A stretch of DNA of 64,000 nucleotides from Heterodontus francisci (lineage: Eukaryota), in the NCBI RefSeq assembly GCF_036365525.1, contig NC_090384.1, positions 55,549,895 through 55,613,894 of the forward strand. The letters run 5' to 3'. The notes beneath the pieces were generated by a model. The model did no database searches, was not told the origin of the DNA, and saw only the letters and a program-made list of their open reading frames with translations. Shown here one piece after another: positions 21,501-61,802 of this stretch (position 1 is the stretch's first letter; each line of letters begins with the position of its first letter). The position numbers were made by a program, and so were the translations under genes.

Positions 21501-24500
21501 TTTGTTCAAAGACAGGAGATGAAATGTGTTGACACAGTGGACTTCTCAGGGTCTTTTAGAGAGGTGCTGGAAAGCTGAGCTGTGGTCTTCTCTCCTTCCT
21601 TGAGACGTTCTCTTCTCTCCTTGCTATATAATCCAACCCTAACTCAAAACAATTCCAAAGTGAAACCGACAACAGGTGGTCAACCTTTTGACCTCCATCA
21701 ATCTTAACCTGTCACTTCTTTGGAAACAACTTCTCCAGGTGTCCACAGTTCTCGGCTGTTTATTGAGCTGGAAGTCAGGGTGGTTTCCTGGAAAGGCTTG
21801 TTTTCCTCACAAGACCTCTCAATGCACCAAAACTCCTCAGACAGCACCTTCCAAACCCACAAGCTCTACCACCTAGAAAGACAAGGGCAGAAGATGCATG
21901 GGAATACCACCACCTGCAAGTTACCCTCCAAGCCTCACACCATACTGACTTGGAATTATATCGCTCTTTCTTCACTGTTGCTGTGTCAAATTCCTGGAAC
22001 TCCCTTCCTAACAGCACTGTGGGTCAACACCTTCTCAAGGACAATTAGGGATGGGCAAAAATTGCTGTCCTAGCCAGCAATGTCCACATCCCATGAATGA
22101 ATAAAAAAAGGAATGGGTCTTGAATTGAAAGAACTTTGGAAGCTTACAGTTAGGGCATTTGGAATGTTTTCATCTACTTCCTTTAAAACGTTGGGAAGGA
22201 AACATCTTTTCCTGGGGAACTATCACTCTTCAGTGTCATTATTTTCTTCATTACTGTAATTTTGCTTATGTTAATTTTGATAAGTACCAGTCCCTGATTC
22301 AGTATTAGTTTCCTTGGGATGTCCAACTTGCCATCATTTTCTTCTACTGTAAATACTCACACAAAATAATTATTCAACATGTCCCCCATTTCCTTATTTT
22401 CATTTACAATATTACCATTATTAGTTTTCAAAGCCCCACATTTCTCCTGAACACCCTTTTCTTAATTGTTAAAAATGTTTATATTGTTTTTGATATCCTT
22501 TACCGTTTCTTTTCATATTTCCTTTTTTGTAGCTCTTACTATCGCTGCCCCAACCAAGGTAATGTTAACTTTGTAAAGATTGCATTCCTCATGATCTGTA
22601 TGGCTTAGTTACTGACTGGTAAACTCACTGATTCATCAGAGGAGCCAGAAATTTAATGTTTGGAATGCAATATTGCCTTTTATAGATTGCAAACAAACGT
22701 CCTGTACTGTGAACGTAACAGCAATTTATATCACATATCAGGAAAATGATTCTGTCTCTCTTACCTGATACTTGCATCACTGAACTCTTTTCCTCTTTAT
22801 GGGGAGTAACAAAAACAATGCAGGTGTAATTTCCTTCTTCATTAAGTTGTACATTTGGAAGGTAAAGTGAAGCATTTCCTTTCCGTAAAGCGTCGTCAAA
22901 AATCTTTGCCCCATTTCTCTTTCGCAGATGTTGTCCTCCGTTAAATATATACACGTCTGTCCGGCTTGTTCGCGATTCAAAAACCCATCGAACAGCTACG
23001 TGTGTGAGGTCAGGTTCTGGGTTACTGTATTTGCATTTTAAAAGAGCATCTTCATTTACTGAAACTTCCAGCGGAGAGGGAAATATCTCCAATTCTAATG
23101 ATCCTTTAAAATAAAAACATCTTAAAACATTAATATACATAAAAGTAGCCTCATATCACATATAGATGAGCGTTTTTAAACTTTTTGTTCATTCATCAAA
23201 AAATACATTTGAAAATCATTTGTTTCAAACTATCCATTCTGTAACCATTCCCTATATATATTGATGCCCATATCTCCAGTAAACTTTCATTATAATGTGA
23301 AAAGTTTTCTGCCTTGGGTTATTGGTTCCATATCTTTTCATTAAGTATGTAAAATAGTTTTAGTTCTGATTCTCTCTTACTGTTCTATCATGGTTCCAGT
23401 CCTATTTCTCCCAATGCAGAACACCGCACTACCATCATTTGAAAATTCTTCAGGCAAGGTAAATTATTTTTCACACAGACTACAGTTAACACCCTAAACT
23501 GACCAGCATGTTTTATTTTGAATAATCCTGAGATTACTACCTTTCAGGTCTTGCTCTTTAATCTATCACTTAATTTCTGAAACTCCACATGCAGTACCTG
23601 CATTTTATTTCTTCATGTTTTATAGGTTCCGACATGAATCACTATTTCTGGCTGATGCAAAATCTTTTATATCCACTCCCTTACCCCATTACTACTGAGC
23701 TTCTGAACTGCAGTCTCTCCTGTTTGACACCTGTTGCCTCCATGGTCCCATCATTTTGTTTTCTCTTTCAAGTTTTGTCTTTGTCACAGCTATTGAGTAC
23801 TGAATATCTGGTTGGTAATTCGACATTCACAGGAGATCCTTGTACTGCCCTCCTGTCAATGCTTCCTGGATGGTCTTCCATCCCCACCTCCCAACCCCAA
23901 CACCCTATCCTTCCTATGCTCAATACCTCACTCTGCATGTGAGATTGAAGGGGCAGGGGGGAAGGTGGTGGTGACATCCTGGATTATGTATTCCAAGAAC
24001 CCTTTAGCCTCCTAAATGTGATGTGGACTTCACCAGCTAGTTCTCAAGCTCAGTAACCTTGAGCTCATGAACAAACAGCCAGAGACACCTGCTACACGTG
24101 TGGTTATCCCTGAGACACAAAATATCTAGAACTTCTCACATTGTGCAGATATCACATATCATGGATCTTAGGTGCCCACCCCCACTAGCCTCTGAATACC
24201 AAATGTAATTGTTTACTCTTAAAGGTTTAAGAAACTCAAGTGTAATGCAGTGACTAACTCCTCCAATATAATTCCTAATACACAAATATAAACTTAAAAT
24301 AATTTGCAATATCATCATGGGATATTCTGATGTTGTGAAAAGTACTGTATACATGCAAGATTTTTAGGGTAAACAAGAAAAAAAGGAAAGACTTGCACTT
24401 GCACTTGCACCACCAACAGATGCCTCAAAGAGCTTTACAGCCAATGAAGTACTTTTGAAATGTAGCCACTGTTGTAATGTAGGAAACACAGCAGACAATT

Positions 24501-39254: not shown

Positions 39255-40334
39255 AAGTCACAGTAAAAAAGGAGGTAGTTAAGATACAGAAAGGGCTAAA
39301 AATTGATAAAGAGGAGGTACTAAAAAGGCTGGCTGTACAAGTAGATAAATCACCAGGCCTGGTTGGGGTACATCCTAGGTTGTTGATGGAAGTAAGGATG
39401 GAAATTGCAGAGATACTGGCCATAATCTTCCACTCCTCCTTAGAGGAGTAATGCCAGATGACTGAATTTCAAATATTACATGCTTGTTCAAAAAAAGGTG
39501 TAGTGAGAAATTCAGCAATGACAGGCCAGTCAGTTTAACCTTGGTAGCACAGAAGCTTTTAGAAATGATAATCAGGGACAAAATTAAGTCACTTGGACTA
39601 GTGTGGATTAATTAATGAAAGCCAGCACAGATTTGTCAAAGGCAGTCATGTTTAGCAAACTTGATCGAATTTTTGGAGGAGGTAACAGAGAGGTTAGATG
39701 ATGGCAATGTGATTGATGGGTGTATATGAACTTCCAAAAGGTATTTGATAAAGTACCATATAACAGGCTTGTCAGCAAAATTTAAACCCATGGAATAAAA
39801 GGGGCAGTGGCAGTCTGGATATAAAGTTGACTAAGTGACAAGAAACAGAGTAGTGACAACTAGTTGTTTCTTAGACTGGAGGAAGTTATACAGTGGTGTT
39901 CCCCAGTGGTCGCGGCTTTTCTTGATATATATTAATGACTTGTGCCTGGTGCATAGGGCACTATTTCAAAATTTGCAGATGACATAAAACTTAGAAGTCT
40001 AGTGAACAGTGAGGAGCGTGGTGATAGAGTTCAAGGGGCCATAGACAGGCTGGTGGAATAGGTGGACAAGTGGCCGACGAAATTTAATGCAGAGAAGTGC
40101 AAAGTGATACATTTTGGGAGGAAGAAAGAGGGAGACAATATAAACTAAAGGGTACAATCCTAAAGGGAATGCAGGAACAGAGAGATCTTGGGGTTATACG
40201 TGCACAAATCATTGAAGCTGGCAGGCTATGTTGAGAAAGCCGTTAATAAAGCATATGGGATCCTGGGTTTATAAATAGCATCATAGAGTACAAAAGCAAG
40301 GAAATTACAATGAACCTCTGTGGTTTGGCCACAA
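39255..40334 (+). mobile_element. Old CR1 RT fragment (left part; resumes at about 47289)
   Basis: DKSPG..G.HPRLL, RPVSLT and SKFADD remnants; breaks at the LVRP-equivalent TGGTTTGGCCACAA. Confidence 0.8.
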
Positions 40335-43300
40335 CATAAGAACATAAGAAATAGGAGCAGGAGTAGGCCATTCAGCCCCTCAAGCCTGCCCCACCATTCA
40401 ATAAGCTCATGGCTGATCTGTCCCAGTCCTCAACTTCTCTTTCAGGCCTGCTCTGCCTAACCCTCGACTCCCCGAGATTTCAAAAATCTGTCTACCTCCT
40501 CCTTAAATACATTTAGTGACCTAGCCTCCACAACTCTCTGAGGCAGAGAATTCCAGAGATTCATCACCCTCTGAGAGAAGAAATTCCTTCGCATCTCAAT
40601 TTTAAATGTGTGCCCCCTTATTCTGTAATTATGTCACCTAGTTTGAGATTCCCCCACTAGTGAAAACATCTTCTCAACATCTATCCTGTCGAGCCCCCTT
40701 AAAATATTATATGTTTCGATAAGATCACCTCTCATTCTTCTAAACTCTAATGAATAAAGGCCTAACCTGTTTAGCCGTTCTTGATAAGACAACCCCTTCA
40801 TCCCAGGAATCAGCCTAGTGAACCTTTTCTGAACTGCCTCCAATGCTAGTCTATCCTTCTTTAAATATGGGGACCAAAACCTGTACGCAGTACTCCAGGT
40901 GTGGCCTCACCAACACCCTGTACGGTTGTAACAGGACTTCCCTATTTTTAAACTCTAACCCCTTAGCAATAAAGGCCAAAGTTCCATTTGCCTTCCTATT
41001 TACTTGCTGCACCTGCATGCTAACCTTTTGTGTTTCATGTACAAGAACACCCAGATCCCTCTGTACTGCAGTATTTTATAGTCTTTCTCCATCTAAATAA
41101 TAATCAGCCTTTTTATTCTTCTTACCAAAGTGGATTACCTCATATTTTCCCACATTGAACACCATCTGCCAAATTTTTGCCCACTCACTTAACCTATCTA
41201 TATCCCTTTGCAGATTCTTTGTGTCCTCATCACAACATGCCTTCCCACCTATTTTTGTATCGTCAGCAAATTTAGAGACACTACACTCTGTCCCTTCCTC
41301 TAAGTCATTGATGTAGATAGTAAATAGCTGAGGCCCTAGGACCGATCCTTGTGGCACCCCACTAGTTACGGCTTTCCAACCTGAAAAAGACCCATTTATC
41401 CTGACTCTCTGCCTTCTGTGTGTTAGCCAATCCTCAATCCATGCCAACACATTACCCCCAATACCCTGAGCTCCTATTTTGTGCAATAACCTTTTATATA
41501 GCACGTTATCAAACGCCTTCTGAAAATCCAAATACACAACATCTACTGGTTCACCTTTATCCACTCTGCTTGTTATATCCTCAAAGAACTCTAACAAATT
41601 TGTCAAACATGATTTCCCTTTCGTAAAACCATGTTGACTCTGTTTGATTGCATTATGTTTTTCTAAATGTCCTGCTATTTCTTCCTTAATAATCGACTCA
41701 AGCATTTTCCCAATGACTGATGTTAATCTAACTAGTCTAAGATTTCCTGCTTTTTGTCTCCCTCCTTTCTTGAATAGAGGTGTCACATTAGCGGTTTTCC
41801 AATCCACTGGTACCCTACCGGAATCCAGTGAAATTTGGTACATTATGACCAATGCCTCCACTATCTCTGCAGCCACTTATTTTAAAACCCTTGGGTGCAG
41901 GCCATCAGGTCCTGGCGATTTATCTGCCTTTAGTCCCATCAGTTGGTCCAGCACCTTTTCCCTCGTGATAGAGATTGTTAAAAGTTCCTCCCTCCCATTT
42001 ACACCTTGTTCATGTATTATTATTGGGATGTTTATAGTGTCCTCCACCGTGAAGACTGATGCAAAATATTGGTTCAAATTATCTGCCATTTACCTGTTCC
42101 CTGTTGTTGATTCCCCAGTCTTATTCTCTAAGGGTCCCACACTTACTTTAGCTACTCTCTTCCTTTTAATATACCCATAGCAGCTCTTACTGTTTGTTTT
42201 TATGTTTCTTGCCAATTTAATCTCATAATCAATTTTCTCCCTCTTTTTTAGTTTTTTAGTCATCCGCTGTTGGTTTCTAAAAGCTTCCCAATCCTCTGGC
42301 CTACCACTCATTTTCACCGCATTGTACGCCTTTGCTTTTGATTTGATACTCTCGTTAACTTCCTTTGTTATCCACGGGTGGTTCATGGTTCTCTTCAAGT
42401 CCTTCCTTCTGACTTGAATAAATGTTTGCTGAGTGTTATGAAATATCTGCTTAAACGTCTACCACTGCTCATCCACTGACTTCCCCTGTAGTCTATCTTC
42501 CCAGCCCTCTTTAGACAACTCTTTCTTCATACCTCTGTAATTGCTCTTGTTTAAGTTGAAGACACTGGTTTGAGACCCGAGTTGCTCACCCTCAAACTGA
42601 ATTTGAAATTCTACCATGTTATGATTGCTTCCCCCTAAAGGATCCTTAACTATGAGATCTCTTATTAATCCTATCTCATTACACAATACCAAATCAAAAA
42701 TTGCCTGTTCCCTTGTAGGTTCTGTGACATATTGCTCTAAGTAACAATCCCTGAGGCACTCTATAAATTCGTCTTCCGTGCTACCCTTGCCAATTTGATT
42801 TGTCCAGTCTATATGTGGATTAAAATCACCCATGATAATTGCAGTGCCCTTCTTACACGCCTCCATTATTTCCTGATTAATATCTTGCCCTACAGAGAGG
42901 CAACTCCTCGGGGGCCTATAGACCACTCCCACCTGTGATTTCTTTCCCTTGCTATTCCTTATTTCCACCCAAACTGATTCTATATCACAATCTGTTACAC
43001 CAAGATCATTACTCACAACTGTACTGATCCCTTCCTTTAATAGCAAAGCTACCCCACCTCCTTTACCTTTCTGCCTATTCTTCCAGAACGTCTAATATCC
43101 TTGAACATTTAGATTCCAGTCCTGGTCATCCTGCAACCACGTCTCTGTGATAGTTATCAAATCATATTCATCTATTTCTATCTGTGCCGTCAGCTCATCT
43201 ATCTTGTTACAAATGCTATGTGCATTCAGATAAAGAGCCTTAAGTTTTGATTTTTTTACCATTTTGACCTACTCTGGTTCTAATTTCTGCTGTACTCTTG

Positions 43301-44905: not shown

Positions 44906-45013
44906 TAATCCGCAGCGATCTTACTTTCAGTTGCCAATCTTCAGCACAGCGTGTGGCACTCACACGCCTTCACTTTCCTGTCCAGAGAAAGCTGACATCA
45001 CCGAGGTGAAGAA

Positions 45014-47085
45014 GGGGTGAACGCTGCACAATGTAGTGTCTGGGGTGGGGGGTGGGGAGGGGTCAACTCTGCTCTAAGTACTGTAATGGGGGGAAGGGGT
45101 GAACTCTGCACTATGTACTGTTTGGGAGAGGGAAAGTGTGAACTCTACACTATGTACTGTAATGGGGGGGAGGGGTGAACTCTGCACTATGTACTGTATG
45201 GGAGAGGGAAAGGGTGAACTCTGCACTATGTACTGTAATGGGGGGAAGGGGTGAACTCTGCACTATGTACTGTATGGGAGAGGGAAAGGGTGAACTCTAC
45301 ACTATGGACTGTAATGGGGGAAGGGGTGAACTCTGCACTATGTACTGTATGGGAGAGGGAAAGGGTGAACTCTACACTATGTACTGTAATGGGGGGAAGG
45401 GGTAAACTCTGCACTATGTACTGTATGGGAGAGGGAAAGGGTGAACTCTGCACTATGTACTGTAATGGGGGGAAGGGGTGAACTCTGCACTATGTACTGT
45501 ATGGGAGAGGGAAAGGGTGAACTCTGCACTATGTACTGTAATGGGGGGAAGGGGTGAACTCTGTACTATGTACTGTCTGGGAGAGGGAAAGGGTGAACTC
45601 TACACTATGTACTGTAATGGGGGAAGGGGTGAACTCTGCACTATGTACTGTATGGGAGAGGGAAAGGGTGAACACCACACTATGTACTGTAATGGGGGGA
45701 AGGGGTAAACTCTGCACTATGTACTGTATGGGACAAGGATAGGGTGAACTCTGCACTATGTACTGTAATGGGGGGAAGGGGTGAACTCTGCACTATGTAC
45801 TGTATGGGAGAGGGAAAGGGTGAACTCTACACTATGTACTGTAATGGGGGGAAGGGGTGAACTCTGCACTATGTACTGTATGGGAGAGGGAAAGGGTGAA
45901 CTCTGCACTATGTACTGTAATGGGGGGAAGGGGTGAACTCTGCACTATGTACTGTATGGGAGAGGGAAAGGGTGAACTCTACACTATGTACTGTAATGGG
46001 GGAAGGGGTGAACTCTGCACTATGTACTGTATGGGAGAGCGAAAGGGTGAACTCTGCACTATGTACTGTAATGGGGGATGGGGTGAACTCTGTACTATGT
46101 ACTGTAATGGGGAAAGGGGTAAACTCTGCACTAGGTACTGTATGGGAGAGGGAAAGGGTGAACTCTGCACTATGTACTGTAATGGGGGAAGGGGTGAACT
46201 CTGTACTATGTACTGTAATGGGGGAAGGGGTGAACTCTGTACTATGTACTGTAATGGGGGAAGGGGTGAACTCTGCACTATGTACTGTAATGGGGGAAGG
46301 GGTGAACTCTGTACTATGTACTGTAATGGGGGAAGGGGTGAACTCTGCACTAGGTACTGTAATGGGGGAAGGGGTGAACTCTGTACTATGTACTGTAATG
46401 GGGGAAGGGGTGAACTCTGCACTAGGTACTGTATGGGAGAGGGAAAGGGTGAACACTGTACTATGTACTGTAATGGGGGAAGGGGTGAACTCTGCACTAG
46501 GTACTGTAATGGGGGAAGGGGTGAACTCTGTACTATGTACTGTAATGGGGGAAGGGGTGAACTCTGCACTATGTACTGTAATGGGGGAAGGGGTGAACTC
46601 TGTACTATGTACTGTAATGGGGGAAGGGGTGAACTCTGCACTAGGTACTGTTTGGGAGAGGGAAAGGGTGAACTCTGCACTATGTACTGTAATGGGGGAA
46701 GGGGTGAACTCTGTACTATGTACTGTAATGGGGGAAGGGGTGAACTCTGCACTAGGTACTGTATGGGAGAGGGAAAGGGTGAACTCTACACTATGTACTG
46801 TAATGGGGGAAGGGGTGAACTCCACAGTATGTACTGTATGGGAGAGGGAAAGGGTGAACTCTGCACTATGTACTGTAATGGGGGAAGGGGTGAACTCTGC
46901 ACTAGGTACTGAATGGGAGAGGGAAAGGGTGAACTCTACACTATGTACTGTAATGGGGGAAGGGGTGAACTCTGCACTATGTACTGTAATGGGGGGAAGG
47001 GTTGAAGTCTGCACTATGTACTGCATGGCGGGGGGGTGGGGCGGTAAGGTAGGGGTGAAGTCTGCGTTATGGTGTACTGTTTGCA
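45014..47085. repeat. Minisatellite of about 2 kb with 36/37-bp and 39-bp unit variants
   Basis: Core GGGTGAACTCTGCACTATGTACTGTA followed by either ATG(G)GGGGAAG or TGGGAGAGGGAAA, with degenerate units at both edges. Confidence 0.97.
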
Positions 47086-47288
47086 GGGCTAGCAACTTTT
47101 AAAAAATAGTGCAAGCACCTGTTCCTGCTCCCACCCCCGCAACATGATGGGGGAGTGGCCGCTGTGCATCTGCAGTGTTCCCACCAGATGCAAGATTGCG
47201 TCAGCACAGCGGTGCGGGTCCTGTGCATGGCAGCCGCCATTTTCTGCGCTCACCGTCGGTTCTGGCAGCAGGAGCTCACGATCGATCC

Positions 47289-47755
47289 CATTGTGTCCAA
47301 TTCAGAGCACTGCACTGTAGGAATGATATGAAGGCCGTTGAGAGGGTGTAAAAGGGATTTCTTCAAATAATTCCAGGGATGAGGGACTTCAGTCACATGG
47401 AAAGATTGTAGAAGCTGGGGCTGTGGTCATTAGAGAAGAGAAGGTTGAGAAGAAATTTGATAGAGGTGTCCAAAATCAGGAGGTGTCAAGACAGAGTCGA
47501 TAGAGAGAAACTGCTCCAATTCACGGAAGGGTCGAAAACCAGAGGACACAGATTTAAGGTGACTGCCAAAAGAACTGGAGGTAATATGAGAAAAACCTTT
47601 TCTAATGCAACAAGTGGTTATGATTTGGAATGTACTGCCTGAGAGGATGGTGCAGGCAGATTCAATCAAGGTCTTCAAAAGCAAATTAGACAAGTGCATG
47701 AAGGGAAAATATTGCAGGGCTACAGGGAAAAGGTGGGGGAGTGGGACCGGCTATT
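47289..47755 (+). mobile_element. Old CR1 3' fragment (continuation of 39255-40334)
   Basis: CVQF..., LEKRRLRRNLIEV, TRGHRFKV and IWNVLPE. Confidence 0.8.
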
Positions 47756-48024
47756 ATAGTCCACCTTTAAGTGGGCGTGGATACATTTTCAGTGCACCTT
47801 GCTAGAGAGGAAATGGTGTAGCATACTATGTGACTGAATCTCATTCTCGATCTGCTGCTGATCACCAAACAGACCAGCCATGTACAGATGTTCTCTTGCA
47901 ATGTAATGCCATGCTACTAGCCTCAATTAGTGTTAACTGACCCATGATGCGTGGTTAGTGCCTTGATGTCTGATGTCTGAATGAGGTACTTTGATTTCCA
48001 GAGGTATTTGATAAGGTGCCACAT

Positions 48025-49092
48025 ACGAACATATGAATTAGGAGCAGGAATAGGCCACGGGACCCCTCAAGCCTGCTCCGCCATTCAATATGTTCATGGC
48101 TGAACTGATTACTCCACATTTCCACCTATCCCCGATAACCTTTCACCCCCTCGCTTATCAAGAATCGATCTACCACTACCTTAAAAATATTCAAACACTC
48201 TGCTTCCACTGCCTTTTGAGGAAGAGAATTCCAAAGAAAAAATGTCTCCTCATCTATGTCTTGAATGGGCGACCCCTTATTTTTAAACAGTAACCCCTAG
48301 TTCAAGATTCTCGCACAAAGGGAAACATCCTTTCCACATCCACTCTGTCAGTACCTCCCCAGGATCTTATATGTTTCAATCAAATTGCCTCTTACTCTTC
48401 CAAACTCCAGCGGATACATGCCCAGCCTGTCCAATCTTTCCTCATAAGACAGGCCACCCATTTCAGGTATTAGTCTAGTAAACCTTCTCTCTACTGCCTC
48501 CAACGCATTTACATCCTTAAATAAGGAGACCAGTACTGTACACAGTACTCCAGATTTGGTCTCACCAATGCCCTATATAGCTGAAGCATAACCTCCCTAC
48601 TTTTGTATTCAATTCCCCTCGCAATAAACTATAACATTCTATTAGCTTTCCTAATTACGTGCTGCACCTGCTAACCTTTTGCGATTCATGCACTAGCACA
48701 CCCAGATCCCTCTGCATCTCAGAGCTCTGCAATCTCTCACCATTTAGATAATATGCTTCTTTATTATTCTTCCTGCCAAAGTGGACAATTTCACACTTTC
48801 CCACATTATACTCCATTTGCCAGGTCTTTGCCCACTCACTTAACCTATCTAATCCCTTTGTAGCCTCCTTATGTCCTCTTCACAACTTACTTTCCTACCT
48901 ACCTTTGCATCATCAGCAAATTTAGCAATCATACCTTCGGTGCCCTCATCTAAGACATTTATATAAATTGTAAAAAGTTGAGGCCCCAGAACAGATCCCT
49001 GTGCCACACCACTCGTTACCTCTTACCAACTAGAAAATGACCCATTTATGCCTACTCTCTGTTTGCTGTTAGCTAACCAATCTTCTATCCAG
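48025..49092 (-). mobile_element. CR1 LINE 3' fragment
   Basis: Minus strand has VAQGSVLGP, KFADD and a CR1-type tail. Confidence 0.85.
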
Positions 49093-49099
49093 GTCTAAA

Positions 49100-51022
49100 C
49101 AAAAAAATTAACGTTCTTGACATATCAAATGGGTTTTAGTCCGTTCCGTTGCACCCCGATGATCAGTACAAATTCGCCTTTAGCTTTAAGGGACAACAAT
49201 ATACATGAACTTGCCTTCCACAAGAATTCCATAACAGCTCCTCTATCTTTCATCAGCGAATGGAAACATGCCTAAAGAAGTTCAGTCGCGCAGACTGACT
49301 GATCGAGTATGCAGACGACTTATTGTGGATCTCTGAAAGTGAAGGAGAACATAGGAAACTGTTGAGGGACTTTTTGAGACTTCTGAACACAACAGCCTTT
49401 AAGGATAACCCCAAAAAGGCACAGATAGAGAAAGAGGAAGTTCAGTTTCTGGGACTCACTATTCGACCAGGAGAATGCAAGATCAGGGCAGGAACTGCCC
49501 TGACTAGGCTCGGTAACCACTCTCCAATTGTTTTTGGGTCTGACAGGTTACTGTAGGAAATTCATTGAGAACTATGCTGATACAGTGGCCTCCTTACTGA
49601 GGTTACTAAAGAAGGGTGTAGAATAGAAGTTGAATGGGGAATGTGAGGAAGCCTTTGTTCAGTTAAAACAAGACTGACAGACAGATCCAACCTTGGCAGC
49701 TGTAGATCCTGGGAAAAGCTTCTATTTGGAATTGGCAGCTACAGATGCCAGTCTGACTGTTGTCCTTATGCAGGAAATGCACCATCAGTTGAGACCAGTG
49801 GCCTATGCGTCCTGCATCCTGGTCGGTGTGGAGAAAGCCAGTTTGCAGTGTTCAACCTGTCACTTTAGATTAGATTAGATTTATTGATCCATCACTCCCC
49901 AACCCACTTATTCTTAAACAGGAGGATCAAACAGGGAACTATGTATAGTGTGCAACTAGCTAGATGGACATTATTGTTAGAAGGCAGTGATCTTAAGGTT
50001 GAAGTGACTGGGGAACGTAAATTAGCCACCCATCTTAATTATAAGGGAGAGTCTCTATTTGCACAGTTGAGGGAGTGTGGGAAATGGAAAGAAGTTTTAA
50101 ATCAGGCATACATCCTGAAGGATGAGCCATCTATGCGGATGGCTCAAGCTTTGTGGAAAAGGGAGAAAGGAAAATAGGATGCAGAATTTAAGATTCAGAT
50201 GGGAACGTGGAGATGGCCCTGTCACTTCCCCACTATCTTTAGTGTTCAGTAGGCAGAGTTAGCCACAATCACCTATGTGGTCACACATCTGACAGAATTT
50301 CCCCCTCCTTACAGCATCTGCTCCAACTCATTCTTTACATGTAACACATGTACAGAAAATTTGGCCATTTGGGCCAGACGAGCATTTTAAGTCAGCAAAT
50401 GGAAAGACTTTGATCACAGTCCCGACGTTGACAACAATATTGGAAACTGTAAAGGCAAAAAGGCACGAGTATTACATCCAAAAGATCAAGGCCCACTCTA
50501 AAACCAAGCCCAGATGGGAAGGTAACCAGAAAGCCGATGAACAGGCTCAGAGGGGTGCAAAGAGAGGAATCCCAAGGGACTGTTATCAGTCAGGAGTGGT
50601 GGTCACTGCTGCCGCTACTCAGAATATGGTCCGACTCCCACCAGATCTTAAGACTATTCAGTTAAATGATGTAATATTAACGGCAATCGCAAAGGAAGAA
50701 GAAGAGGACAGAGACAGAGAATGGCCTGATGGGAGTGGGGAGGTCCAGACCAGAGAGGTAATGCTGTTTAAAAGTGATAAGTGGGTAGTTCCGGAAATGT
50801 ATGCAGAAGAATTCATTCAGCTTCTAAATGGAAAACCAGGGACAGGACACCCAGGACCCAAAGAAGATTTTTGTAAAAACTGTTTGATATATGCTGCTAA
50901 TAATCCTGACTCACACAGAAAAAGGCATCTCTGGGACATACATGACAGTCTGAGGGACCGTGGCAGTGTGTCCATTTTGACTTTATTGGGCCCTTGCTCA
51001 CTACTAAGAATGGTAGTAAATG
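49100..51022 (+). mobile_element. Decayed retrovirus-type pol fragment: RT, tether (degenerate RNase H), RNase H, integrase N-terminus; foamy- or loki-like ERV
   Basis: RT VLDISNGF*SVPL..QYKFAFSFKGQQYT*TCLPQEFHNSSSIFH..YADDLL..NPKKAQ..VQFLG; tether FYLELAATDASL..RPVAYAS; RNase H IYADGSS..Q*AEL..KIKAH..GNQKAD; integrase GHPG..CKNCLI..PWQCVHFDFIGPL. Confidence 0.85.
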
Positions 51023-51560
51023 AATCATAGAATATAATCATGGATTGGTTACAGCACAAAGGAGACCATTCAGCCTATCATGTCTGTGCCAGCTCACTGG
51101 AAGAGCAACTCACCTAGTCCCACTCCCCTGCCTTTTCCCTGTAGCCCTGCATCGTTTTTTGCTTCAGATAATTATTTAATTCTCGTTTGAAGGCCTTCAT
51201 TGAATCTGCCGCCACCACACTCTCGGGCAAAGCATTCCAGGTCCTAACCATACACGGTGTAAAAAAGATTTCCTCATTTCTTTTGCCAATCACCTTAAAT
51301 CAGCATCCTCTGGTTCTTGACCATTCCACCAACGGGAACAGTTTCTCCCTACCTACTCAGTCCTGGCCCCTCATGATTTTGAACACCTCTATCAAATCTC
51401 CTCAATCTTTTCTTCTCCAAGGAGAACAGCCTCAGCTGTTAAGTAAGTGGCCAAAGATCTGGCAAATGGAGTATAATGGGGAAGATGTGAAATTGTCCAT
51501 TTTGGCAGGAAGAATAAAAAAGCATATTATCTAAATAGTGAGAGATTGCAGAGCTCAGAA
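51023..51560. mobile_element. CR1 fragments (3' end on minus 51023-51435; short RT piece on plus to about 51560)
   Basis: CR1-type tail, TRG-LKV remnant, and WPKIWQMEYN. Confidence 0.7.
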
Positions 51561-51764: not shown

Positions 51765-53199
51765 AACCAAAACTCATTTTCACAGCCACATCTCCTTCCT
51801 CAGTTGAGCTCTTCTTCCGTCGCATCCGCCTCCGGGCTCAGTTCTTTGACCAGGTGTCCTCCCCCTGACCAGCAGACCCATTCACCCGCCTCCAGCATTC
51901 TCCCTCTACCTGGACCCCTCTCCCTGGCCTCTGACCCACTCTTGATATTTTCATTGAAAACTGTCAGTGAGACATTGGTCATCTCAATTTCTCTGCCCCC
52001 CTCACTCACTCTCAGCTGTCCCCCTCTGAACTTGAGGCACTCCGTTCTCTCAGGTCTAACCCTGACATGGTCATCAAACCTGCTGACAAGGGTGGTGTTC
52101 TTGTTGTCTGGCGTACCGACCTCTACCTTACAGAGGCTCAGCAGCAACTCACAGACACTTCTTCCTACCTCCCTCTGGACCATGACCCCACCACCGAACA
52201 TCAAGCTACTGTCCACAGGACTGTCACTGACCTCATCTCCTCTGGAGATCTTCCCTCTACAGCTTCTAACCTCATAGTCCTGCAACCCCGGACAGCTCAC
52301 TTCTACCTCCTTCCCAAAATCCACAAATGGGACTGTCCCGGCAGACCCATTGTGTCAGCCTGCTCCTGCCCCACTAAACTTATTTCTTCCTATCTTGACT
52401 CTATCTTTTCTCCGCTGGTCCAGTCTCTTCCCACCTACATCCGTGACTCTTCTGAAGCCCTACGCCATTTTGACAATTTCCAGTTTCCTGACCCCAACCG
52501 CCTCCTCTTCACAATGGACGTCCAATCTCTCTACACCTCCATCCTCCACCAGGATGGTTTGAGGGCGCTCCATTTCTTCCTTGAACAGAAGCCCAACCAG
52601 TCCCCATCCACCACCAACCTCCTCCGCCTGGTTGAACCTGTTCTCACATTGAACAACTTCTCCTTCAACTCCACTCACTTCCTTCAAGTAAAAAGTGCTG
52701 CTATGGGTACCCGCATGGGCCCTAGTTATGCCTGTCTTTTTGTGGGATATGTCGAGCATTCCTTGTTCCAGTCCTACTCAGGCCCCCTCCCCCAAATTTT
52801 TCCAGTACATTGATGACTGTATCGGTGCCGTTTCCTGCTCCTGCCCCAAACTAGAAAAGTTTATCAACTTTGCTTCAAATTTCCACCCTTCTCTCACCTT
52901 TATATGGTCCATCTCTGACACTTTCCTTCCCTTCCTCGACTTCTCTGTCTCCATCTCTGGGGATAGGCTGTCTACTAATATTCATTCTAAGCATACCAAC
53001 TCCCACAGCTACCTCGACTACACTTCTTCACACCCTGCCTCCTGTAAGGACACCATTCCATTCCCCCAGATTCTCCGTCTACGCGCATCTACTCTGATGA
53101 TGACAGCGCTTACATGACAGCACTTCTGATTTGTCTTCCTTTTTCTTCAGTTGAGGATTCCCCCCCACTGTAGTTGACAGGATCCTCAACCGTGTCCGC
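51765..53199 (+). mobile_element. Penelope-like element RT fragment (family of 10961)
   Basis: VIKPADKGG, FYLLPKIHK..PGRPIVS, TMDVQSLYTSI, AMGTRMGPSYA and YIDD, with frameshifts. Confidence 0.92.
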
Positions 53200-54859
53200 A
53201 GAATTCACAGCAGGGCTCCTTCCTTAGTTTTTTGCTGGATCTCTCACAGCTCTCAGCTGGACAGCCTTTTGTGGTGCTGTTGTGATTTCTCTACTCTCCA
53301 GAGAACTACCTTTTAAGGTAACAATCTCTCACCTCTGTAACAATGCCTCTGTTAGGAGATGCAGGGCCCCCTCCCAGTGGTGACCAACAATAACCAAGGT
53401 TGTGGCTACTTCACACCTTCTTTGTGTCAGCAGAACCCATTCAATTCAGAAATGTCTCTTGATGGGTTCAGGATGGGTGTAATTGACATGTCTTAGCTCA
53501 GAATGTCTTCTTTTGTCCTTAACAGACAGTAAGACAGTCTCAATATACAGGGCCAGGTCAAATAACATTCAGTGGCCATTTTGCAGCACATTGTCCACAT
53601 TTTAAAAGGAAAAGTCAATTTTTTTAACTCGTCAGTTTGGGTTGTGTATTTTCGTTGCTGCACTTCTCGTGAACGTGATATAAGGAAAATCCAGGCCTTT
53701 ATAGCAGATGAAGTTGTGAACAGTCTACTGCTCAAATTACTCCCTAACCTCTTGTGTAGTGCTGGTCACTGATGTATTCGAGAGCTACTGATGTGCTGTG
53801 GCCAGTGCAGAGAAAAGTCACAAGAAGGATCAATATTATAGGCGAAAACAAAATCAATCCAAATGCAGGAATGATTTCAAGGAATCATTTTTCACTCAGG
53901 GAAATCCAAAAGGCCTTGATCAGTCATAATGTGAAGTTATTCTCAACGAGAAAGAGAAGCAATGGAAGGAGGATGAGCAACATTCATAGATACACAGAAC
54001 AGAATTGGCAGAGAAGCTGGAAAAGTGAAGCGGTGGCACAGTGTTGATTGTGTTGCTTGCAATTCTCAACATCTGTTCCAAAAGACACATTATATATTGT
54101 TATGCTATCTGTAAAGTGCTTGGAACTAATTAGCTAGGAACTAGTTGTTATGTGTAAGTGTTCCAGTGGGACCACATTCACAGCTGCACTGGAGAGTCAT
54201 GGGATATGTAACACAAAACCAGTTTCACCAGTCCCTACCAGGCAGCATGGTGAGCTATATTAAATACAAAGAGCTCCAGTCATTCCAAGTCTAAAGTGTG
54301 ATTATTTCCAACATCTGGAAACCAGAAAACAACAAGAAGACGTAACATGATGGCAGCAAGTGTCTGTGGGTAAACCTAGAACATTTTAAAAGAATTAGAT
54401 TGGAAAAATGGACCCAAATTAGTGCCAGAGAGAGAGAAAGAAAAACTGAGTGACTAGTGTGAAATGAAAAATGAAACGTTAGCCGGGACAGGAATGAATG
54501 CACAGGTACAGCCATAATGAATTGGGAAGCTGATGATGTTGTAGAGACATTTGAGAAGTTTAAATAAAAGTGCAGACTGATATTCAGAAGTTTCCTAAAA
54601 GACACTAGTGAAGAGGAGAGTGTCAGTTATCTCTTTCTGTGGGTTGGAGATAAAGGATTACATTTATTTAACAGCCGGGACCTAAGTGAAGAGGACAGAG
54701 AAACCAAGACAAAATTTTTGAAAGATTCAGCACCCATCTCCGGCCAAAATCAAATCATCCGATATACCAATATGAATTTCAAGGCCTCAGACAGGAATTA
54801 GGTCAGCCTATTGACAATTTTGTAACAAGATTGAAAAATGGCTGCATTTTCTGACAATG

Positions 54860-54878
54860 CAACCACTAGGTGGCGCAG
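54860..54878 (+). promoter_or_regulatory. CTCF consensus motif
   Basis: AACCACTAGGTGGCGCAG matches the CTCF core CCACYAGRKGGCRC. Motif only; binding untested. Confidence 0.5.
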
Positions 54879-55738
54879 TACTTGCACCTGCACAAATGAA
54901 GGCTCTTCAACTGGAACGTCATTGTCTGCGACGTTCAGGCATCTGCCGGGATTAAAGATGGCGCTGCTCAATTTATCACAGGAAATGTTCATGGATAGAT
55001 TGTTGTAGCAAACTAACCATACATTAACTTGGATGGAAGCCCAGTTATATGCTACTATGTAGTTATAGGATACTAATTGTAATCCTCAGATCCATTTAAT
55101 ATTCCAGTAGTCAAATTAAATACAAAAGGAATTTTATGATTGAATTTTCATTGGAAGATAGTCAATTGTCACTAGAGGCAGAGTATAAAATGTGCTGCCA
55201 ATTCGTTGTTGTGATTTGTTTATATGACTGATCAGGACTGATTTCAGCTGAACGCAGCTACTAGCTCCCACCCCACTGGCCGCTCTCCCCACTCGGCAAC
55301 TTGCTTTCTTCCCCCTCCACCCCACTGGCCGCTTCCCCCCTCAGCTGATCGCTCCAGACCTCGCTGCTCCGCCTCCCCCCCACTCCCCTGGCCGATTGTT
55401 CGCTCACTCCCCACCGCCCCCTCCCCCACATCCCTCCAGCCACCAGCTCTAGACCACACTGCTTCCCTCTTCTCGGCTACTCAATCTCACGTTTCATCAG
55501 TCACCACGTGCCGCCCGAAGAAGCAAAGAATGCTGCAAGGGATGATGGGGCGACGTAGGAGTGAGTGCCTGAGAGGAGGGAAGCGGCACAGAGCAAGGGA
55601 TTCCTAAAATGTTAATATGTGACAATGGCACCCAATTTACATCCAGACAATTTAAGGAATTCGCTGACCAGTATGGGTTCAACACCATCACCTCATCACC
55701 ACACTACCCAAGGGGACACAGATTTATAGAAAGACATG

Positions 55739-56133
55739 GGGGAGGCGGTGGCCTAGTGGTATTATCACTGGACTAGTAACCCAGAGACCCAGGGTATTTC
55801 TCTGGGGACATGGGTTCAAATCCCACCACAGCAGAAGGCGGAATTTGAATTCAATTAATAAATCTGGAATTTAAAGCTAGTCTAATGATGGCCATGAAAC
55901 CATTGTCGACTGTTGTAAAAACCCATCTGGTTCATTAATGTCCTTTAGGGAAGGAAATCTGCTGTCCTTACTTGGTCTGGCCTACATGTGACTCCAGATC
56001 CACAGCAATGTGGCTGACTCTTACATACCCTCGAAATGGCCTAGCAAGCCACTCAGCTCAAGGGCAATTAGGGATGGGCACTAAATGCTGGCCTGGCCTG
56101 CGACGCCCACATCCCATGAAAGAATTTAAAAAA
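55739..56133 (+). mobile_element. Full-length tRNA-derived SINE nested in the integrase
   Basis: A box TGGCCTAGTGG, B box GGTTCAAATCC, A-rich tail, TSD ACATG (55734-55738, 56134-56138). Removing it restores FIERHVRMVKR. Confidence 0.9.
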
Positions 56134-56181
56134 ACATGTCCGGATGGTCAAAAGAACACTTGTAAAATGCCAAGAGACAAA

Positions 56182-56941
56182 GGGCTGAATTTTACGCTGC
56201 CCCAGTGAGTCGGATGATGGCGTGGGGGCAGTGTAAAATTGAGTGGGAGGCTCTGGAAGGCCTTCCTGCCCCGCTCCCGCCTCCGGCCAACTTTACGGCA
56301 GTCGGTGGAGGCAGAGGGGAGTGGGGGCGAACGGCCCGCCTGCTTGCCCCAGGCCAATCGAGGCCCTTAAGTGGCCACTTAAGGGCATTTGCCCACATCC
56401 ACGGGTATTTTACCCTTGGCAAGTGGGCGTGCTGGGGACGTGAAAGGCTACCCAGCGATAGCTGCCGGCCTTTCCGTGCGCCGGGTTGGTGCCATGGCAG
56501 TCGGGCATAGTGTGCCCAAATGAGGGCCGCCCCCACCTCCCAACCTACCCCTGCCTCCCAACCCACACCCGGAACCAAGACGCCCCCTTCTCCCCCCAAA
56601 CGACTACCCTTGCCTCGCTGCCACCACTGACCACTCCCCCGGCGAGGCAAGCCCAACTGACCTAAGATCCTAGCTCATGGAGTTGGCTGGGCTGTAGTCC
56701 CAGCAGTGGCCACCGCACCCTGTGGCGCTGCTTGGACTAAGAGCTGCTGGACCTCTGATTGGCTGGCAGCTCACATAGGTGGGACCTCCTCCCTCAAGCG
56801 AGTGGAATTCCCGCCTCGAGACAATTAAAACCCGGGGACCCATAAAATGCAGGTCGGATCCCCAGGCTAGGCAGAAGCGGGTTCACCACCAACTTTTATG
56901 CCGGTGATCAAGTGCCATCCGCCTATGGTAAAATCCAGCCC
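56182..56941. mobile_element. Harbinger-type MITE (760 bp) nested in the integrase
   Basis: TIR GGGCTGAATTTTAC / GTAAAATCCAGCCC, 3-bp TSD AAA. Removing it restores the frame CQETKEDPNLALL. Confidence 0.92.
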
Positions 56942-59153
56942 AAAGGAAGACCCAAACCTGGCCTTATTGTCACTCCGATCCACAAGGCTGACATGAAATC
57001 ACCTCCAGAACTGTTGAATGGAAGAAAATATAAGACCACTCTGCCAAGCAAAATACATCCTTCAAGTGGCCAGGAGGAAGGAAGTGAGACAACAACTCAC
57101 AGAAGCACAGGTAAGAGGAGAGCAACACTTCAAACATATGCTAAGTCCCTACCCGAACTGTTGAAAGGACAAACTGTACACGCACAGGATCCAATCACGA
57201 TAACCTGGAGCCCAGCAAAGGTTGTTGGTGAAGCTGAGACCCCAAGGTCATATATCATTGAGACCGAAACAGGTAACCAAATGAGAAGGAACAGAATCCA
57301 TATTCGACGTACACCTGAGCTGGAACAACAGAAAAGACCATCAACAACATCAGAAACATCACTATCCAGCGAGGCAACTTTAACATCACCAGCATTTGAC
57401 ACAACATCGCCCATACAGCGTGACAACTCACCACTGAGAGCAACAAATGCCAAATCTACAAGATGGAGACAGAACATCTTACCACTCGAGCGATACCGCG
57501 AATAATATTTTTTTTAAAAAAGAATACACGCTATAAAAAACTCTAAAAAGGGGTTTCGATTTTTTCCAAAAGTCGGTTGATAATCTTCTTTAGTTATATT
57601 GACAGTTATATTTATATAGGGGAATTATACTTTAAAGAAAGACGGATGTTAAATATTGTTATACTATTTGTAAAGTGCTAGACACTAATTAGCTAGGAAC
57701 TAGTTGTTATGGGTAAGTGTTCCAGTGGGGCAGCATCCATGGCTGCACTGGAGAGTCATGGGATATGTAACACAAAACCAGTTTCACCATTCCCACCAGG
57801 CACCATGGTGAGCTATATTAAACACAAAGAGCTCCAGTCATTCCAAGTCTGAAGTGTGATTATTTCCAACATCTGGAACCAGAAAACAACAAGAAGACAC
57901 AGCACACATTATAAACTGTGTTAACTGTAGGTGTGGAGCAGAAGGCAATGCTGCTCTCTGCTGGCCCCATACATGTCTGCCAGCTTTCCCACAACTCCAT
58001 GTTTGAAACTCTGATCAAATTTCAGCCCTAATCAGAAATTATTCTTTTACAATTAGCTCTTTACTCCCCACTGGGAGGACCAGATTAGTTCATTTACCTT
58101 AATGTTTGTTGTAAATCTTTAATAATTTATTTATTTTGTAGCTGTCAAGTTCATAAACATTTCTTTTTAGATAATATATTTCTGCATTTTGCAGATCAGG
58201 TCATTTTGGGAATAATTATGTAATTAGAGCTGAGAAACAGCAAAACCACTGTTAATAATATGGCAAAGAAACTGACTGGAAAGAACCTGTTCCCAGGTGT
58301 TCTGCAGAACAGGCAGAAGGTTAAAGAAAGCATGTCTCTTATAATATCAAAGTTTTTCCACTTTGGGTTCTTGCTACAGTATGGGCATGGATGTGCAGCA
58401 ATGAACAAGCTGAGTAGTGGCCTGAGTGTTTTAAATAGAACCTCAGTCAAAGTATAAGGAAAGTGTGAGGAAACAGTTTGTGGCATGTACATGGCCCATC
58501 TACCGATTGGAGAGAAATGGTTCTTTGCTTTATCTTGGCAGTTTTTGTCACTTACGTACTCCCAGGTCCTCTGATGGGAAGTTGGATTTATACTTTCTAT
58601 CACCTCCACCTACTCAGCTTGGACTGGTTACCTGTGGCGAGGATACCTAGTAGTGAATACAATAACCAATTACCTGATGTAATGTAAACAAACTTGGCAG
58701 TCAATGTGCAGGTAGCAAAGTCCCACAAACAGCAATGAGATAGATGACCAGTCTGTTTATTAGTCATATTGTTTGGGTGATAAATATTGTCTGCTTTGCT
58801 TTGAGTAGTGCCAAGAGTTATTTTGTATCCACCTGAGAGGACAGTTGAGGTTTCAGTCTAAAAGATGACACCTCCAACAGTGGCAGCCTCGTTTATGTAG
58901 GAAAGACTATGGAGTGTGGCTACCTGCCTGTGGCACAGACATCTCACTGATGAATCTTCTGGAACCCCTCTTTGTCCTCGAGCTCCCTGAGGACAATCGG
59001 AATTCTAAAGGAACATCCATACTATTTGCGAGGGATGTAAGAGTGAAGCCACCATTACTTTTAGGTGTTAATGGACAAATTAAAATAATTACTGAAACTA
59101 CAAAAGGATAACAAAATGTTCCCAAATAAATATAGCACAAGAAAAACAAAAAG

Positions 59154-61802
59154 TGTCAGGAAACCCCCCACCTGCCAAGACTGAGGTACACATTATTTCG
59201 CCACATGAACATTAAAACTTAAAAATTGCAGGCCCCCTGACTGGAAAGACATTTACATTGCACCAGACTGTGTTGAAACAAAGGGAACCAATCCCCCCCG
59301 CTCCCCCCACAATATACAGAAGAGCCCTGGTCAAACCAGTCGGTCACCTGACCACCTGCTGGCCAACTAGGGGAGTTCTAAACTAGAAAAACAGAATTTG
59401 AACTCAGAAGGCTGTGCTCCTGGAACTGAAGCAGAACCCTCTCTGCCTGCATCCATCTCTTTCCCATGGAACTGAATCTTGTGAAGGCACGTAAACTCAG
59501 AGAGAGAAAAATCTCCGACGTGAACAAGGTTTACGAAGAATACTGGGCCCCAACGAAACGCAAGACCATATCTTCAATCAAAGGCTGCAGTGAGCTCAAG
59601 AAACAGTAACACGATATTGCCTCAAACTGTTCTACTTATCTTTTCTTCTGCTCCTTTCTGCGCCTATTTGCACATGTGGATGCTAACGTAGATGCGTCGT
59701 ATATCCGTAGGTGTTAACCGTATTAAAGTTTAAGTTTAAGGTTTAATAAACTTCACTCTTTCTTCTTTAAACCACAGAAAGCCTGTTTGTGCTCATTTCT
59801 TTGCCTTATAATTGGAAAGTTGTGAACAAGGATTCACAGAGGGGAATCTCAAAACACAGTGTGTTTAAAATTAAACCCTGTTACAATAAGACCAGGTGAA
59901 GATAGTAACAAACCCCTAGACACCTTTCACACCAGTTTGTATGAGAAATTGGGTGCTAGCGTTTGGAATTTTACCCGCAGACAAATAAGTGAAATTGGAA
60001 GTGGGAAGCCAAATTGTTCCCAATCAAAATGAGCAAATTATTACAGATTTTCTTGTGGTTGTGTGGTTGAATACTAACATGTCTACAACTGAAGTTAGCA
60101 GCTCTCCAAGCCAGGGTGAAGTAACTTGGGATAAGTTAAAAGCACTGTCTTTGGAGGAGTTGAAGAAAATGGCCGAACAGTGTGGGATCACTGTACATGG
60201 CAAGGCTAGGAAATCTGAACTCCTAAGGCTAGTGGCCAACCATTTTTCCCTTGAATCTGAAGAAGCAAAAGCAGTGTTAGAAACAGAATCCGACTGGATA
60301 TTGTTAGCAAAGATATAATTGGAACAGAGGAAACTTGAATTAGATGAAAGAGAGAGGGAGAAAGAAAGAGCCTTCCAGAAGGAATGCGAAGAAATTGAAA
60401 GACAGGAGAAGGAATAAGAGAGAGAGAGGAGAGAGAGAGGGAAAGAATATTCTGGAAGGAATGTGAAGAAAGAGAGTTACTATAGCTTGAGTTAGCTAGA
60501 GGGCGACAGAGTAACCCTAGTGAAAGCATGGCCAATTTGGAGGAACAGAATTCAGGACTGGGCACAAAATTGAGAAAACTCACTCAATTAATCCCAAAAT
60601 TCAATGAGGAAGATGTGAAAGCATTTATCGTGTCTTTCGAGAAACTGGCAAGGCAACGAAAATGGCCAACTGAGACCTGGTCTCAGCAAACTAGCTGGAA
60701 AAGCTCGTGAAGTTTATTCCTTGTTGCCAGATGAGAGTTCATCAAATTATGAACTAATCAAAAATGCTATCCTCGGGGCATATGAATAAGTACCCGAAGC
60801 CTTTCGCCAAGTTTAGAACCCTCAAAAAGCAAGCTAATCAAACTTACCTGGAGTTTGACAGAAGCAAGCAGTGGGCTTTTGACCAGTAGCACAGGACTTT
60901 ATAAATACAATTCAGCGATGGGACTCTCAGAGAAGTAATCCTTGTAGAAGAAATTAAAAAGTCTCTCCCATTCTCAGTAAAGACACATGTGGAGGAGCAG
61001 CGGGTTCAAGGAGCCTGGCAAACCGCCTTTCTGGCGGATGAGTTTACATTAATTTATAAGTTGGTCAGGAGAACTTTACCTGATCATCCCCATAAATCCA
61101 AAAAGGACAAAGGGTGGGAAGGTGATATTCGGCCAGGCATTCCTGGAAGAGAAAGGAAAGCAGGAGACACGGGGGCCCTTCTCCAGCCAAAAAAGGTGTA
61201 ATAGGCAGGCATTTAAAAGCTGACTGCTGGAAACTAAAGGGGAAACCGGTAGGGTTAATAAGGGCACAGGCTCAGTGCAGATGGGACCCTGATGGATTCC
61301 ACAGAACAAGCTATGGCTTTAACTGCAGTGAGAGTGCAACCCAGGAAGCTTACTGCAGCCAGTGCAGGTAAAGTTAATAGGATTCCTGAAGGTTAACAGG
61401 GTTTTGTATTTGAAGGGAAAGTAATCCCATATCCCGCAAGTAGGGCCAGCAAGCCCATAGTGATTCTCAGTGACAATGTGGCCTCTAGATCTCTTTTACT
61501 GGGAAAAGGCCTGACCTTTCCCCCAGAGAGTGCAGTGAACACCAGAATGATGGTGAATAGTATTGAAGGGCAGTGTATGCCTGTGTACACTGGATGCATC
61601 TGGAGTGCGACCTGGTTTCGGGACCGGGATTGTCCCTAGTTTGCCTGTGGATGGGGCTGACCTGCTCCTAGGTAATGATCTGGCAGGGTGAAAGTGGTTA
61701 CCACCCCACCCCCCAAGTAGTGAAAGAAAGACCGCAGGATGTCAGAGAAACAGGGCAGTGGCAGGAGACGGTCGCCTGAATGTGTAATGGATCAGGCCAT
61801 GT
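59154..61802 (+). mobile_element. Gypsy (Gmr1-like) element: 5' LTR 59154 to about 59944, decayed gag and protease, truncated by CR1
   Basis: LTR homologous to 10570-13491, PBS-like TTGGGTGCTAGC, gag LIPKFNEEDVKAF..FEKLA..KWP..GKA.EVY..VPEAFRQ, degenerate protease ILSDNVAS. Confidence 0.85.

Follow-up and report, generated by a model that had tools for sequence, protein, structure and literature searches.

Which retroviral lineage left the pol-like sequence near one end of a 64,000-nucleotide stretch of the Heterodontus francisci genome (hereafter the window) is the question that this locus raises. The earlier note on this DNA had read it as a fossil of a foamy- or lokiretrovirus-like endogenous retrovirus (ERV), representing a basal retroviral lineage in cartilaginous fish.

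The pol fragment and its flanks

Positions 49092-51020 of the plus strand contain a genuine, decayed fragment of a retroviral pol that is cut off at both ends; it was found by tblastn and HMM searches, and its limits were refined from contigs and repeat comparison. The RT palm, thumb, tether, RNase H and integrase start follow one another in this order on the plus strand, and the fragment is damaged by ten in-frame stops and six frame shifts over seven segments. A tblastn search with P0009, a near-intact unnamed Pol protein of 1145 aa, yielded five colinear segments over P0009 residues ~267-948 with a sum E=3e-128.

The RT has lost its N-terminal part, and the remaining palm (49104-49484; Pfam RVT_1, E=1.1e-21) contains stops at 49137, 49206 and 49296. 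The thumb and the tether, the latter a degenerate Ty3/Gypsy-type RNase H, occupy 49489-50039 (RT_RNaseH_2, E=3e-13), with stops at 49501, 49624 and 49675 and an internal gap near 49852-49871; this piece matches MLV/XMRV RT chains in the PDB (E=3e-8 to 2e-7). The second, acquired RNase H is spread over three frames at 50060-50565, is interrupted at 50123, 50189 and 50250, and shares 51% identity with P0009. Its separate pieces give weak Pfam matches (E=0.0011 and 0.045), while the domain read through its breaks with X scores 90 bits (E=1.5e-27) against an HMM from which the window copy and its nearest relative were left out; among 200 shuffles the highest score was 7.7 bits. The last segment (50566-51020, with a stop at 50943) comprises a linker, a partly deleted integrase zinc-binding region and the first residues of the integrase core, and corresponds in tblastn to P0009 residues ~773-948. 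The integrase piece taken alone has no Pfam match and aligns to P0009 residues 914-948 at 51%; the RNase H/linker piece, P0004, found no homologue among 639 candidates and no significant match in the PDB.

The motifs named in the earlier note are present and in order in the six-frame and segment translations, namely LDISNGF, QYT..TCLPQ, FHNS, YADD and FYLELAAT..RPVAYAS, followed by IYADGSS, AEL, SANGK, KIKAH..GNQKAD and FDFIGPL, and the RVT_1 and RT_RNaseH_2 matches bear out the RT and tether. The letters that it had set in brackets within these motifs are absent from the sequence, where stops or other residues stand instead.

High-copy LINE fragments adjoin both ends of the pol fragment. The left one (48021-49091, minus strand), which we take to be CR1/L2-like, is 71% identical to 40334-41441 and has a contig depth of 3e5-1e6, with loose contig ends behind 49091. 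Those on the right (51021-51559, minus strand) were recognised by repeat matches and have a depth of 4e4-4e5; within them, 51117-51437 is 74% identical to 47413-47747 in inverted orientation and 51438-51559 is 90% identical to 48719-48844, also inverted. The depth and junction evidence comes from contigs of sequencing run X1, from which the window DNA possibly derives. The two junctions are crossed by two of these contigs with 0 differences. Most of pol has a contig depth of 9-23, compared with 4e4-1e6 for the flanks, so the copy number is low, and a 2575-nt X1 contig that matches 50056-50230 with 27 differences (~85% alike) comes from another, diverged member of the family. The family is therefore rare, with at least one further copy.

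The earlier note had seen neither gag nor env nor LTR, and the window indeed yielded no LTR pair and no protease, gag or env sequence of the pol element. Used as tblastn queries, 10 relatives and a pair of SnRV ORFs (in the gag and env positions) detected no further piece of this element in the window, and no repeat pair flanks the fragment within 36000-64000. A product of the window copy seems unlikely in view of its numerous breaks and the lack of an LTR at the locus, and to judge from the sequence the copy is now likely inert. A search of sequencing runs for this DNA gave four holders, 0 of which are recorded as RNA.

Phylogenetic placement

Homologue searches returned 3, 53 and 150 proteins, most of them unnamed, and the nearest relatives of the window copy are unnamed Pol proteins with a best identity of 58% in RT. 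Reference labels were set by motif match to the accessible part of the alignment published in PMC7947760. P0089 (also locus L018) was labelled snakehead retrovirus (SnRV), P0126 was labelled WDSV, and P0073, P0076, P0144 and P0175 were labelled lokiretroviruses, joined by P0142 in the RNase H and integrase trees; foamy, beta, delta and gamma Pols were taken from IMG/VR motif scans and labelled by motif. The trees took in 33-61 of ~230 proteins, and all of them leave out CmiERV-I, ERV-L, fish foamy-like ERVs and a verified Odin element. The RT tree of 61 rows was reduced to 53 by dropping L052 (labelled delta, in fact gamma), P0032 (long and mislabelled) and six others, and P0010, a mis-extracted sequence on a long branch, was dropped from the RNase H tree. 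A search of viral_contigs with P0009 returned no locus; a search with alignment A1 found there only SnRV (L018), and its 11 distant metagenome-contig loci (24-32%) were not used. P0044 and P0048 were considered as Odin elements, which the check did not confirm; both have a PF-type RT, a tether and a second RNase H grouping with that of lokiretroviruses, and are possibly Odin-like. Further literature drawn on comprises several other papers (PMC10699275, PMC6001957, PMC4977317, PMC8922424, PMC10435555, PMC11089739, PMC9040795).

In the 53-row RT trees the window copy is sister to P0008/P0009, with support of 100/97 under LG+G4 and 100/95 under the mixture model, for which the bootstrap fell barely short of settling. 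It lies inside a canonical-retrovirus side of 39 rows, with lokiretroviruses and Gypsy outside (100/99 under LG+G4 and 100/98 under the mixture model). The RT+tether tree of 35 rows is concordant, placing the window copy among canonical retroviruses with 99/99; class I rows (epsilon/gamma; WDSV and MLV) form in this tree a 100/99 branch without it. Within the canonical side, a ten-row clade holding the window copy and P0064 is moderately supported (86/92 and 87/87 with RT, 84/88 with RT+tether); its members include P0008, P0009, P0124, P0011, P0063, P0064 and kin. The earlier note had proposed RT and RNase H trees as a check: as built here, with no verified Odin included, they yield a canonical retrovirus and not a Gypsy element, and no grouping with lokiretroviruses or foamy viruses.

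The RT core, compared over 50 positions of which two are stops in the window copy, has 38 identities to P0009, 30 to SnRV (hand count and script agree), 29 to WDSV, 18-24 to lokiretroviruses, 19-21 to foamy viruses and 6-18 to Gypsy. Counted by hand over the same 50 positions, HERV-L has 23, ZFERV-2 22 and AciFLERV 19. Over 102 positions of the palm there are 59 identities to P0009, 48 to SnRV, 31-38 to lokiretroviruses and 32-34 to foamy viruses. When the tether is included the ranking is different, with 35% identity to WDSV, 32-34% to the four lokiretrovirus proteins and 31% (89/287) to SnRV.

In the trees of the second RNase H, a split with support of 99/97 and 97/96 places the window copy together with SnRV, gamma and epsilon and separates it from lokiretroviruses and foamy viruses, which agrees with RH group III in the accessible text of PMC7947760. 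The AU test over 148 columns of this domain rejects neither lokiretroviruses nor foamy viruses (p=0.34 for each). A further RNase H test (p=0.49) is uninformative, because its constraint could be satisfied by shifting the pair to a basal position within its own group. The earlier note had used the presence of two RNase H domains as a pointer to lineage; since this layout is normal for all retroviruses according to the same part of PMC7947760, it points to neither foamy viruses nor lokiretroviruses. The P0009 integrase shows 42-45% identity to lokiretrovirus integrases and 36% to that of SnRV, and the integrase tree leaves P0009 without a resolved position.

Origin of the fragment and rival explanations

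The closest named sequence is CmiERV lineage I (CmiERV-I; scaffold 2) of the elephant shark (Han 2015, PMC4422223), the pol of which was translated by hand from the supplement of that paper and compared outside the trees, P0064 serving as its stand-in (46/66 residues identical by hand in the RT N-terminus). By hand, it shares 36/50 residues of the RT core and 52/102 of the palm with the window copy. A C[AS]P[TV]V signature is present in CmiERV-I and in 6 of the 53 RT rows, all from the clade of the window copy, which itself has lost that part. By eye, CmiERV-I also has the F.LE.A tether motif, a GPW..FIGP integrase start and RNase H motifs similar to those of the window copy. Whereas the window copy is a 1.9-kb pol remnant, CmiERV-I has the full structure of a provirus, including LTRs, gag and env; about half of the residues differ, and the window copy therefore belongs to a different family. 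The novelty claimed in the earlier note is thus lost at the level of lineage, the closest named relative by hand comparison being an ERV already described from a cartilaginous fish.

In the tree of Han 2015, CmiERV-I clusters with SnRV. The SnRV-related group was named clade Huo by Xu 2018, in the accessible part of which it holds class III ERVs and occurs in all major vertebrate lineages. SnRV itself shares with the window copy the LDISNGF and PQ-type motifs and the side of the RNase H tree, and differs from it in the low RT+tether identity, the divergent integrase and the lack of a supported joining. We consider that the fragment was left by germ-line integration of a class III, SnRV-related retrovirus of clade Huo near CmiERV-I, with a probability of about 0.8. 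Membership in Huo is likely on the basis of the hand comparison with CmiERV-I and the tree of Han 2015, both of which stand outside our own trees.

Following established retroviral biology, the RT of the parent pol would have copied RNA and its active second RNase H would have degraded RNA, while the tether would have been a catalytically retired structural remnant and the integrase would have inserted the DNA. The parent may have reached the germ line through an infection, or a family member already resident there may have been copied, and the inserted copy would have decayed after fixation. LINE insertion and deletion would then have removed gag, protease, the rest of the integrase, env and both LTRs from the locus.

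The window copy and CmiERV-I could instead belong to an unnamed early lineage of canonical retroviruses, separate from SnRV, that has retained an ancient tether and an integrase resembling that of lokiretroviruses, in which case Huo would be a loose grade. No tree joined SnRV to the clade of the window copy with support, and in the RT trees this clade branches off before foamy viruses and orthoretroviruses (90/96 under LG+G4 and 98/93 under the mixture model). The P0009 integrase is nearer by identity to lokiretroviruses than to SnRV, and the tether in P0063 and P0064 scores well above the Pfam cut-offs. However, the base of the RT+tether tree is an open polytomy, the AU test does not reject a grouping of the clade with SnRV (p=0.36 for RT, p=0.14 for RT+tether), and both Han 2015 and Xu 2018, the latter in its accessible part, place such elements with SnRV. 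Long foamy branches, together with the absence from the trees of references such as fish foamy-like ERVs and ERV-L, may have produced the early branching artificially. The basal position proposed in the earlier note accordingly finds weak support in the order of branching, while key references are missing from the RT trees that give this order. A separate early lineage appears to us unlikely. Considerably less probable is an origin of the fragment from clade Tu, the foamy-like ERVs of which have been reported from the catshark and the elephant shark. Such ERVs are described in the catshark in the accessible literature, and foamy viruses share with the window copy the PQ-type motif, a DL/I.NGF motif and a similar integrase-start motif. 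In the PDB, the RT palm matches foamy RTs best (58 bits versus 54-55 for MLV, with no class III protein among the matches listed), and the AU test with RT alone leaves room for a grouping with tetrapod foamy viruses (p=0.12). With RT+tether this grouping becomes borderline (p=0.049) and the identity to foamy viruses, at 22-24%, is the lowest of all groups; the four to five tetrapod foamy RTs form a 100/100 branch of their own, fish foamy-like RTs share only 19-22 of 50 core positions by hand, and the foamy RNase H falls on the other side of its tree. The foamy-like affinity proposed in the earlier note is therefore disfavoured.

The other half of that proposal, a lokiretrovirus, would be the first in cartilaginous fish. 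Lokiretroviruses are defined by an RT sister to other retroviruses, a group I RNase H, grouping with that of foamy viruses, and an env like the Mononegavirales fusion protein. As far as PMC7947760 was accessible, they resemble the window copy in having a tether and an RNase H and in the integrase of its relatives. The tether of the window copy is well kept, and the whole fragment scores 166 and 149 bits with lokiretrovirus proteins versus 127 with SnRV. The RT motif argues the other way, being PF-type in 23 of the 23 lokiretrovirus RTs examined (24 are published) and PQ-type here. In addition, the AU test rejects the grouping (p=0.006 for RT, p=0.002 for RT+tether), lokiretroviruses form a 100/99-100 branch without the window copy, and their RNase H belongs to another group, so that a lokiretroviral origin is highly improbable. 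Equally remote, in our view, is an origin from a retrotransposon of Gypsy/Metaviridae or Odin-like type that had gained an extra RNase H, a reading with which the Ty3-like tether and the lack of env or LTR at the locus would be consistent. A grouping with Gypsy is rejected (p=0.0002, RT+tether), a 100/99-100 branch sets the window copy apart from the Gypsy rows, Gypsy elements have a single RNase H versus two here, and CmiERV-I has an env. The earlier note was thus right in seeing a retroviral rather than a Gypsy pol with tether and RNase H. Odin elements are recognised by an RT sister to that of lokiretroviruses, a dual RNase H and no env; the position of the window copy inside the canonical retroviruses argues against them.

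Standing of the locus and other features of the window

As a class III, SnRV-related remnant, the window copy is one more decayed ERV locus of its class, real but ordinary, and its family may already figure in the supplements of Xu 2018. According to the accessible literature, 2843 clade III RT loci occur in 6 cartilaginous-fish genomes, where they make up the majority of ERVs; class III loci number hundreds per genome, and a single copy matters little. A true lokiretrovirus would have mattered, because lokiretroviruses were found in 0/6 cartilaginous-fish genomes in the accessible part of the source, and the open literature, as far as accessible, yielded no report of one in sharks; the RT data reject it. 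The residual value lies in the clade, the near-intact members of which (P0009, P0011, P0063 and P0064) could help to settle the unity of the 'SnRV-like' group and the root of canonical retroviruses. It is a doubtful prospect that aquatic vertebrates harbour an extensive retrovirus lineage, hardly named so far and represented by the fragment, CmiERV-I and at least nine unnamed Pols, that is distinct from SnRV and branches off ahead of foamy viruses; with its least-eroded tether and loki-like integrase, this lineage would come closest to modelling the pol of the ancestral canonical retrovirus.

The window contains several features besides the pol fragment, and its repeats would fit a shark host, as the earlier note had supposed. 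V-set and C1-set immunoglobulin exons are located at 22625-23155 and 9120-9476, both on the minus strand, and the V domain is nearest in the PDB to CD276/B7-H3 (E=1e-21) and B7-H6 (E=4e-11); by this similarity the exons likely belong to a B7-family host gene ~26 kb from the ERV. Direct repeats at 54090-54320 and 57649-57878, 90-95% alike, flank an integrase-like stretch (55597-55731), and from this arrangement 54090-57878 is classed as an LTR element of its own that has suffered an internal deletion. Other LTR elements have left Gag-like fragments at 16493-16858 and 59989-60318 on the plus strand, with Pfam matches to Gag_p24_C (E=1.5e-5) and Rho_N-like (E=1.7e-5) that are both just around the cut-off. 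A GIY-YIG domain (E=4e-4) accompanies two RT-like frames, presumably Penelope-like, at 11444-12727 (minus strand) and 51971-53198 (plus strand), which are 89% alike over 621 nt. The region 44937-47102 consists of tandem arrays with units of ~76 and 36-39 nt and has long open frames on both strands.
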